Positions 980 to 3,215 of a stretch of 25,559 bases of DNA are shown here, in pieces; positions within the stretch are counted from its first letter, which is position 1; each line of letters opens with the position of its first letter. The position numbers were made by a program, and so were the translations under genes. Below the pieces are notes generated by a model. It was not told where the DNA came from. It made no database searches and saw only the letters and a list, made by a program, of their open reading frames with translations. The stretch is from an uncultured Phycisphaeraceae bacterium (lineage in GTDB: Bacteria > Planctomycetota > Phycisphaerae > UBA1845): contig CAZNQN010000001.1 of assembly GCA_964574925.1 (NCBI GenBank), forward strand, positions 1 through 25,559. The letters are read 5' to 3'.

Positions 980-1060
980 GCTCCCTTACCCGTCTGCGTG
1001 CGGGCACGCCTGCCTGTGCGTTGCACGCAGACAGGCATAGGCAGGTGGTCGCGGCTCCGT
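980..1060. mobile_element. Nested miniature palindromic elements: REP copy interrupted by a 30-nt element, itself interrupted by a 27-nt element of the same family
   Basis: Removing 990-1046 restores the exact 24-mer seen at 874-897. Removing 1009-1035 from that insert leaves a 30-mer whose reverse complement (ACCTGCCTATGCGTGCCCGCACGCAGACGG) resembles the inner element (CCTGCCTGTGCGTTGCACGCAGACAGG). Confidence 0.7.
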
Positions 1061-2685: not shown

Positions 2686-3215
2686 AGGCGACGGCGATGA
2701 GGACAACCGAACCGAAACGATTCCGCGATCTGATCCGTCTGCTGGAAACGCTGCGGGCGCTGCATGAGGAGTTGCTGGAGGTGATCCGCCGCAAGATGCA
2801 GGCGATGAAGGAGGCGGACCTTCCGGCCATGCAGGCCCTGACACGGCGGGAGCACAAGCTGATCGAGCGCATTCAGGAACGGGAAGGATGTCGGCGGCAA
2901 CTGCTCGACGTGCTGGGCGAAGAACTGGGTTTCCGCAACGGCAGCGGGCGGGCGGTGAATGTGTCGCAACTGGCGGATCGGCTGCCCGATTCGTGTCGGC
3001 GGACGCTGGAGCATACGGCGCGGGCGCTGCGTGACGTGGTCGTGAAGGTGGCGCAGGCGAACCGGGTGGCGGGCGCGATGTCGCGTGAGGTGATTCACCA
3101 TTTGACGTGGGTGTTCGCGGCGGCCCGTCCGCGGGCAGCGGCACCGGTGGGATACGGCGACAACGGAGCGCCGGTCGCGGCAGAGGACGCGGCGCTGCTG
3201 GATGCTGTGGGGTAG
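2682..3215 (+). CDS. flgN: Flagellar export chaperone FlgN
   Basis: Helical/coiled-coil 177-aa protein (HEELLEVIRRKMQAMKEADL; QANRVAG) between flgJ and flgK, with an ATGA overlap. Confidence 0.8.
   Translation: MKATAMRTTEPKRFRDLIRLLETLRALHEELLEVIRRKMQAMKEADLPAMQALTRREHKLIERIQEREGCRRQLLDVLGEELGFRNGSGRAVNVSQLADRLPDSCRRTLEHTARALRDVVVKVAQANRVAGAMSREVIHHLTWVFAAARPRAAAPVGYGDNGAPVAAEDAALLDAVG

Follow-up and report, generated by a model that had tools for sequence, protein, structure and literature searches.

How did a short repeat between two flagellar genes come to be split by a hairpin that is itself split by an inverted relative? This question is raised by the flgH–flgI spacer in the window, i.e. 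the complete 25,559-nt stretch of DNA analyzed here, which is contig C1 of our assembly G000 (2.77 Mb, 482 contigs, 66% G+C, 72% complete). A first-pass annotation had read the arrangement as a three-level nested insertion of miniature palindromic elements without target duplication, mobilized in trans by an HUH/Y1 transposase and, for the outer event, resembling the insertion of IS608 3′ of TTAC. As a whole, this interpretation is partly supported by our results, which recover its anatomy but assign a different role to the outermost repeat.

The flgH–flgI spacer

The 24-mer GCTCCCTTACGGTCGCGGCTCCGT is intact at positions 874–897, and its halves GCTCCCTTAC (980–989) and GGTCGCGGCTCCGT (1047–1060) are separated by 57 nt (990–1046). 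The intact 24-mer and the pattern GCTCCCTTAC-N57-GGTCGCGGCTCCGT each had one match in the window and none in 100 dinucleotide shuffles. As annotated, the insert is a 30-nt hairpin (989/990–1008 plus 1036–1045/1046) split by an inverted 27-nt relative (1009–1035). There is an ambiguity of 1 nt at each insert junction, and the three nested levels were found with no target duplication (≤1 nt). Positions 872–1097, which form part of the spacer, hold two copies of a 27-nt REP-like unit, one empty and one occupied by the hairpins that are referred to as guests in the following:

47–736, + strand: flgH (flagellar L-ring), the upstream gene (Pfam FlgH, E = 2.7e-31; tblastn against relatives)
872–898, + strand: empty REP-like unit CCGCTCCCTTACGGTCGCGGCTCCGTT, which includes the intact 24-mer (boundaries from the information content of 123 empty copies)
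906–939, + strand: two degenerate 19–20-nt tandem repeats of the right half of the unit (TCGCGG.TC.GTTC.; repeat family D1)
943–970, + strand: AT-richer short tandem repeat (GCAATGCGCAATTC / GCAACCCGCAATTC), related to ATTCGNN arrays (repeat family D4)
978–988, + strand: left half of the occupied REP-like unit (caGCTCCCTTA; direct reading and pattern scan)
989–1008, + strand: 5′ part of the outer guest hairpin of the 30-nt type, with arm CCCGTCTGCGTGC, loop GGGCAC, then G (the unsplit 30-nt type is known at other sites)
1009–1035, − strand: inner guest hairpin of the 27-nt type, inverted (CCTGCCTGTGC-GTT-GCACGCAGACAGG; 27/27 match to the reverse complement of the stand-alone 27-nt type)
1036–1045, + strand: 3′ part of the outer guest hairpin (CATAGGCAGG; consensus CACAGGCAGG; direct reading)
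1046–1061, + strand: right half of the occupied unit (T-GGTCGCGGCTC-CGTA; consensus C-GGTCGCGGCTC-NGTT; direct reading and unit consensus)
1064–1097, + strand: two more degenerate right-half repeats (ACGGTCCCGGCTCCGT; GCGACCGCGGCTCGA; repeat family D2 and direct reading)
1196–2338, + strand: flgI (flagellar P-ring), the downstream gene, with a signal peptide at its start (Pfam FlgI, E = 5.5e-63; translation)

The relatives of this genome are Phycisphaerae and other Planctomycetota, and flgI homologues are present in 20 of 21 of them. The distance from flgH to flgI is 459 nt in this genome versus about 2–180 nt in 13 relatives. In relative G009 the spacer contains a single inverted REP-like unit, other relatives carry different repeats there, and the block with nested guests was not found in the flgH–flgI spacers of the relatives. 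The remaining spacer sequence (737–871 and 1098–1195) has no second copy in the genome, and a search of the spacer and the block against Rfam retrieved nothing above threshold. Among the metagenome contigs, an exact flgI anchor matched none with the window locus. The repeat-filled stretch 743–1195 has no stop over 151 codons in the flgI frame (~3% by chance at this G+C content), and in this frame the unit at 872–898 reads PLPYGRGS, which is the frame used in the alaS cassette described below. The signal peptide at 1196 argues that translation of flgI begins there.

The REP-like unit and the Y1 transposase

Repeats were counted by BLAST and Hamming scans, and joint patterns were used exclusively because single-module scans with mismatches matched shuffled sequence nearly as often. 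The genome contains 99 exact copies of the 21-mer GCTCCCTNACGGTCGCGGCTC, or 132 if up to two mismatches are allowed, compared to 0 matches of the reversed control pattern. According to the information content of 123 copies, the unit is 27 nt long (CCGCTCCCTNACGGTCGCGGCTCNGTT) and conservation ends at its edges. Its reverse complement, AAC-CnGA-GCCGCGACC-GTNA-GGGAGCGG, folds as CCGC..CC / tetraloop / GG..GCGG. Both sequence and fold agree with those of a class 3 REP-like hairpin, CnGA-GCCGCGACC[GTNA]GGGAGCGG, which Quentin et al. 2018 (BMC Genomics 19:475, PMC6006769) give for Legionella pneumophila and Solibacter usitatus in their Table S1. Hence, the 24-mer is not a mere target as first annotated, but itself a high-copy REP-like hairpin of the type associated with class 3 Y1 transposases. 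In the 132 empty copies, the tetraloop base N is mostly C (95) and otherwise T (25) or G (12), giving TCAC, TTAC and TGAC, respectively. Since the T of TTAC is this variable loop base, and occupied sites are mostly TCAC, the parallel with IS608 fails and is a coincidence.

The assembly contains 132 empty and 68 occupied units, and the intact 24-mer that had served as the empty-site reference is one of about 132 such copies genome-wide. The units are dispersed one at a time, and degenerate right-half repeats follow about one third of them. Empty units were intergenic in 117 of 132 cases and classified occupied units in 44 of 51, where these calls rest on our own crude gene caller, trained on GC3-filtered frames, in a genome that is ~81% coding. 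The units are spread over 130 spacers without bias in their orientation relative to transcription (35 same, 43 opposite). The units are found preferentially on the G-rich strand (118 of 183; counting each contig once, 74 of 117, p = 0.005), and this preference, for which contig skew is only a proxy of the replication strand, fits strand-specific DNA processing. Many units are preceded at a distance of 5–12 nt by 7-nt tandem arrays (NNATTCG, three or four units; e.g. C441 2229, C474 2254, C290 57). All nine strict ATTCG arrays in the genome adjoin a REP-like unit, and two or more ATTCG-type motifs precede about a quarter of the units.

A single Y1_Tnp match was detected in the assembly, on contig C44 (Pfam, 32.5 bits; cut-off 23). 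The encoded protein scores below the other cut-offs (NCBIfam IS200, 31.7 vs. 55 bits; RayT NF047646, 23.6 vs. 80 bits), and a sequence search of solved structures yielded remote IS200 transposases only (2f4f, E = 0.002). It contains the HuH motif TNHVHVVV, in which H93 and H95 are invariant in 12 homologues, and the motifs AWTRHGST and RYVAEAQ, with W132 and Y153 invariant and Q158 at least 90% conserved in the same set. Class 3 enzymes are characterized by NHVH, W[TA] and Y-x4-Q (Quentin et al. 2018, PMC6006769). The C44 system shows NHVH, W[TA] plus Y-x4-Q, flanking hairpins with a 5′ CnGA foot and high-copy dispersal, i.e. all of the class 3 features examined. The gene is flanked by two inverted units (L001 1314–1334 and 1884–1904), both of them empty and free of guests. 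The suspected link to an HUH/Y1 transposase thereby gained substance, as the sole Y1_Tnp gene of the assembly lies between inverted copies of the 21/24-mer. The related expectation of a transposase gene bordered by the same hairpins held for the REP-like units but not for the guest hairpins, which flank no transposase gene in G000 or in the related genome G004.

Both inverted unit flanks were present at 32 of 50 loci with a relative of the C44 protein, which stem from MAGs of Planctomycetota, Acidobacteriota and Chloroflexota. Among 31 related genomes, several of which are incomplete, the unit was found in 10 of 12 with a Y1 homologue versus 8 of 19 without one. Judged by their sequences, the 24-mer and the C44 transposase are members of the class 3 Y1/REP-like system of Quentin et al. 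2018, with which they share the protein signatures and the same flanking and dispersed repeat. The high copy number is a further likeness, and the taxa (Planctomycetes, Acidobacteria) fit as well; in S. usitatus the class 3 hairpin reaches ~600 copies (Quentin et al. 2018, PMC6006769).

Small extragenic hairpins numbering in the hundreds, a Y1 transposase gene that is present once and bordered by inverted repeats, and alternating or tandem unit clusters are also known from the REP/BIME and REPIN–RAYT systems (E. coli TnpA-REP; Pseudomonas REPINs; PMC3116915, PMC3337134). In contrast to these, the units described here have no GTAG/CGTC foot, and given this and its low RayT score the C44 protein is not a canonical RAYT. 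Moreover, inverted REPs lie side by side in REPINs and BIMEs, whereas the hairpins described here are placed one within the 3′ arm of the other, and the nested arrangement is therefore not a REPIN.

Guest hairpins, their sites and their spread

Between GCTCCCTNA and CGGTCGCGGCTC, 68 units are occupied, 30 of them by a single guest and 38 by nested guests. The guests share the arms CCTGTCTGCGTGC...GCACAGGCAGG and fall into three types:

27-nt type: loop AAC; ssDNA fold −6.7 kcal/mol
30-nt type: loop GGGCAC; ssDNA fold −9.1 kcal/mol
34-nt type: loop GTGCCCGCAC; ssDNA fold −13.2 kcal/mol

All three layers of the window locus recur across the genome, and the 27-nt and 30-nt hairpins also occur unsplit. 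The inner 27-mer of the window is the exact reverse complement of the stand-alone CCTGTCTGCGTGC-AAC-GCACAGGCAGG (C9, C163, C213, C387), and the rebuilt outer 30-mer is found unsplit elsewhere (e.g. C2, C35, C162, C218, C368). In total, the unsplit 30-nt type was recorded at 14 sites in G000, 16 sites in G004 and 14 metagenome loci. In the window copy, three substitutions relative to the family consensus fall in the outer element and its right junction; the inner element is unchanged.

Guests occupy only two contexts. They are located in the tetraloop of the unit (GCTCCCTNA^...^CGGTCGCGG) or, inverted, at CTGCCTGTG^...^CGTGCCCGCACG (or ^CGTTGCACGCAG) within another guest, and no orphan guest hairpin was found outside both contexts in the assembly. 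A long autonomous version with the guest ends was detected in neither G000 nor G004. Without exception, inner copies are inverted and positioned between ...ACG and CACAGGCAGG in the 3′ arm of the outer guest; in the window the inner copy sits 2–3 nt 3′ of the outer loop. Guest orientation is constant at all 68 primary sites and at all 35 parsable inner sites. Filled and empty sites differ by exactly 27, 30, 34 or 57 nt with an ambiguity of 1 nt, and since this difference equals the guest length, any target duplication comprises at most one base. When the two target contexts were compared, the guest strand had CG 3′ of the junction in common and the four bases 5′ on the opposite strand were ACCG, CACG or AACG. 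The contexts otherwise have little in common, and no convincing shared motif emerged. With gaps allowed, the 3′ arm of the guest extended by CGG may resemble the right half of the REP-like unit.

The nested pairs (outer/inner) are 30/27, which is the window type, 27/30, 34/27 and 27/27. Where inner and outer loops differ in type, the inner copy cannot stem from local duplication, and nesting must therefore have drawn at least twice on a hairpin from another site, placed at the same spot. For the same reason, a local template-switch or fold-back origin of the nesting was ruled out. The junction of the window type occurs 25 times in G000, and the 57-nt block with identical internal junctions was found at ~20 loci, where the variable loop base of the unit may be C, T or G. 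The block does recur as a single unit, yet its layers also occur alone and their combinations vary. The arms of the inner copies are not significantly less diverged than those of the outer copies (1.33 vs. 1.70 mismatches, p = 0.16), which suggests that many nested blocks, maybe including that of the window, probably spread as units.

Empty units are present in 18 of the 31 related genomes and are known from Legionella and Solibacter (Quentin et al. 2018, PMC6006769). The unit–guest junction, on the other hand, is confined to G000 (53 copies) and G004 (16 copies) among the 31 genomes, so that 16 of the 18 genomes with units carry no guests. Hence, the pair of enzyme and unit alone does not bring guests. 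Four relatives with 48–119 exact empty units lack guests at the site. The guests of G004 are single and have the loop GTACAC. Scanning the metagenome contigs revealed 14 loci, all with a single 30-nt guest and all from one lineage, and here the guest often occupies one unit of a tandem array in which the other units are empty. Such mixed arrays of filled and empty units were observed at L088 and L093 and also in the window.

G004 additionally contains a second, unrelated guest family of 33 nt, CCCTTGACATCG-CTGCG-CGACGTCTAGGG-CAGG, at the same tetraloop site (C2:43738, C7:95494, C13:64684), which shares the ending ...GGCAGG with the other guests. The wide distribution of empty units, the single-guest metagenome arrays, the unit-rich relatives without guests and this second hairpin family indicate that the empty state is ancestral. 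Filled and empty alleles of one locus were not found. Outside G000, the search of the related genomes for the nested junction gave one weak, context-less partial match in G011. At this locus (L103, G011:C122, ~2970–3002), a lone inverted hairpin of the 27-nt type is followed by CACGGGCGGG in apparently coding sequence without unit context, and it may be a relic or a chance resemblance.

Quentin et al. 2018 (PMC6006769) describe no tetraloop guests, nesting or in-frame cassettes, and no description of guest hairpins with self-nesting was found in the REP/REPIN literature searched. Relative to these sources, the guest hairpins and their self-nesting are new.

Origin of the guests

Elements of the IS200/IS605 family such as IS608 and ISDra2 use HUH/Y1 chemistry, recognize hairpins, insert in one orientation without duplicating their target, and show a strand bias. 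The guests resemble them in their fixed orientation and in the absence of a target-site duplication. They differ from IS608 in lacking its fixed TTAC-type target, as the sites are TCAC, TTAC or TGAC and, in the second context, ...CACG or ...AACG. Furthermore, a guest is a single gene-free hairpin of 27–34 nt, whereas the insertion sequences have distinct left and right ends, and the assembly contains no long element with L...R ends. The arms of the guests are inverted repeats as in MITEs, but with a duplication of ≤1 nt the guests do not qualify as such. REP hairpins also serve as landing sites for IS1397/ISKpn1 and for IS110-family elements in Pseudomonas, which are autonomous, kilobase-sized and use other chemistries. 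The guests share the REP-type landing site with these elements but measure 27–34 nt and nest in their own kind.

We consider it probable that the guests are stand-alone miniature elements mobilized by a Y1 enzyme. The 27-, 30- and 34-nt hairpins would be non-autonomous and would insert at a fixed site and in a fixed orientation, free of duplications, initially into the REP-like hairpin and subsequently into other guests. The likeliest chemistry would be single-strand cutting and rejoining by a Y1 transposase, for which the class 3 enzyme of contig C44 is the sole candidate seen. Since its flanks consist of empty units only, most unit-bearing genomes are guest-free and G004 has a distant homologue, we infer the connection with this enzyme from chemistry and context. 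The window copy would either have formed in situ or have been acquired as a finished block, and the latter may apply because the 57-nt block recurs as a unit at ~20 loci. More tentatively, the guests could be self-standing mobile “parasites of a parasite” that are integrated by the Y1 enzyme into the apical loop region of the class 3 hairpin and, inverted, into each other. According to this proposal, a guest could receive another one because its arms provide an additional target.

In 2018, it was suggested that class 3 Y1 transposases might connect IS200/IS605 elements with REP systems (Quentin et al. 2018, PMC6006769). With ~130 empty, 30 singly and 38 doubly filled copies and junctions defined to one base, the guests offer a concrete prediction of where these uncharacterized enzymes cut and join. 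If the guests are indeed parasites of the REP-like hairpin, the series of empty, filled and doubly filled units marks natural class 3 cleavage and joining points. Self-mobile guests would be among the shortest mobile DNA units known and a clear case of a mobile element that is confined to another repeat.

The strongest alternative, although rather unlikely in our view, is that the hairpins do not move by themselves but entered the units by rare template switching, gene conversion or aberrant repair at an extruded hairpin, and were then spread with the whole unit. This would agree with the identical internal junctions of the 57-nt block at ~20 loci, with the roughly equal divergence of inner and outer arms, with the absence of guests outside units, and with the clear dispersal of the units themselves one by one. 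However, on at least two occasions nesting brought an inverted hairpin of another loop type to the same position, which requires that a hairpin alone was copied in trans. Spread of whole units also accounts poorly for the presence of one and the same block in units with C, T or G as loop base, the mixture of filled and empty units in tandem arrays, and the second, unrelated hairpin family at the same site in G004.

Alternatively, the hairpins could be mobile through another enzyme, i.e. another HUH/RAYT protein or a hairpin-targeting recombinase, which may be missing from an assembly that is 72% complete and split into 482 contigs. Most genomes with a Y1 gene and units carry no guests, and G004, which has guests, encodes as its nearest class 3 homologue a protein that is 30% identical and lacks unit flanks, together with two canonical RAYT-like genes (L081, L085). 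Each of the latter has its own, different hairpins, one with a GTAG foot (GTAGGGCAGGTGCTTGCACCTGCC). We nevertheless regard a different enzyme as improbable: no guest-flanked transposase gene was detected in G000 or G004, landing of the guests is strictly dependent on the class 3 unit, and Y1 enzymes typically insert DNA in a fixed orientation and free of duplications.

A selected structural or regulatory element built in place, such as an mRNA stabilizer, terminator or attenuator, is highly improbable. The block does lie inside an operon and contains two perfect, mutually exclusive pairings (989–1001 with 1023–1035; 1009–1019 with 1035–1045), while its lowest-energy fold pairs 990–1001 with 1023–1035 and forms no single long hairpin. 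Alternative pairings of this kind, however, arise automatically when an inverted sibling is inserted. The same sequences occur, moreover, in 130 unrelated intergenic regions in either orientation, and neither an Rfam match nor a counterpart of the block in the flgH–flgI spacers of the relatives was obtained. Least credible is an assembly artefact of a repeat-rich, fragmented MAG, in which many of the 482 contigs end in these repeats: it is very unlikely because the same nested architecture was assembled at 38 loci with unique flanks, and it is further opposed by a block length below that of a read pair and by single guests in independent assemblies.

Repeats of this kind break MAG assemblies, swell operon spacers such as that between flgH and flgI, and can be read through in essential genes, as observed for alaS. 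On C44, alaS forms an open frame of 1297 residues (L063 130–4023; also L001 412–3240), in which the AlaRS core, tRNA_SAD and DHHA1 domains share one common frame. The Y1 gene and its two inverted units lie in this frame without a stop at ~aa 288–505, between ...TGAPAYRG and VMIDVSYRVIADH, and the units of this cassette are translated as SRDRKGA and PLPHGRGS. A second in-frame insert (L063 ~aa 1055–1130; C44 7057–7176) comprises, besides two right-half repeats, an empty unit and another one that carries a nested 57-nt block; it is located on the opposite strand and translated as a linker just before DHHA1. Rickettsia palindromic elements (RPE), which are ~100–150 nt long and have no known transposase, may likewise sit in frame in protein genes. 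The C44 alaS repeats resemble them in this respect but have no sequence relation to them, and ~90% of the copies are intergenic here.

In-frame embedding extends beyond C44, as 25 of the 50 Y1-family loci (L002–L030 region) lie inside long open frames. The embedding genes include alaS (L002, L004, L010, L013), class I aminoacyl-tRNA synthetases of the Val/Ile/Leu type (L011, L014, L018, L026) and a DUF1156 gene (L007). Long proteins were discarded as fusions or annotation errors by Quentin et al. 2018 (PMC6006769). Free-standing Y1 forms of 160–250 aa were mostly found in MAGs of Acidobacteriota and Planctomycetaceae.
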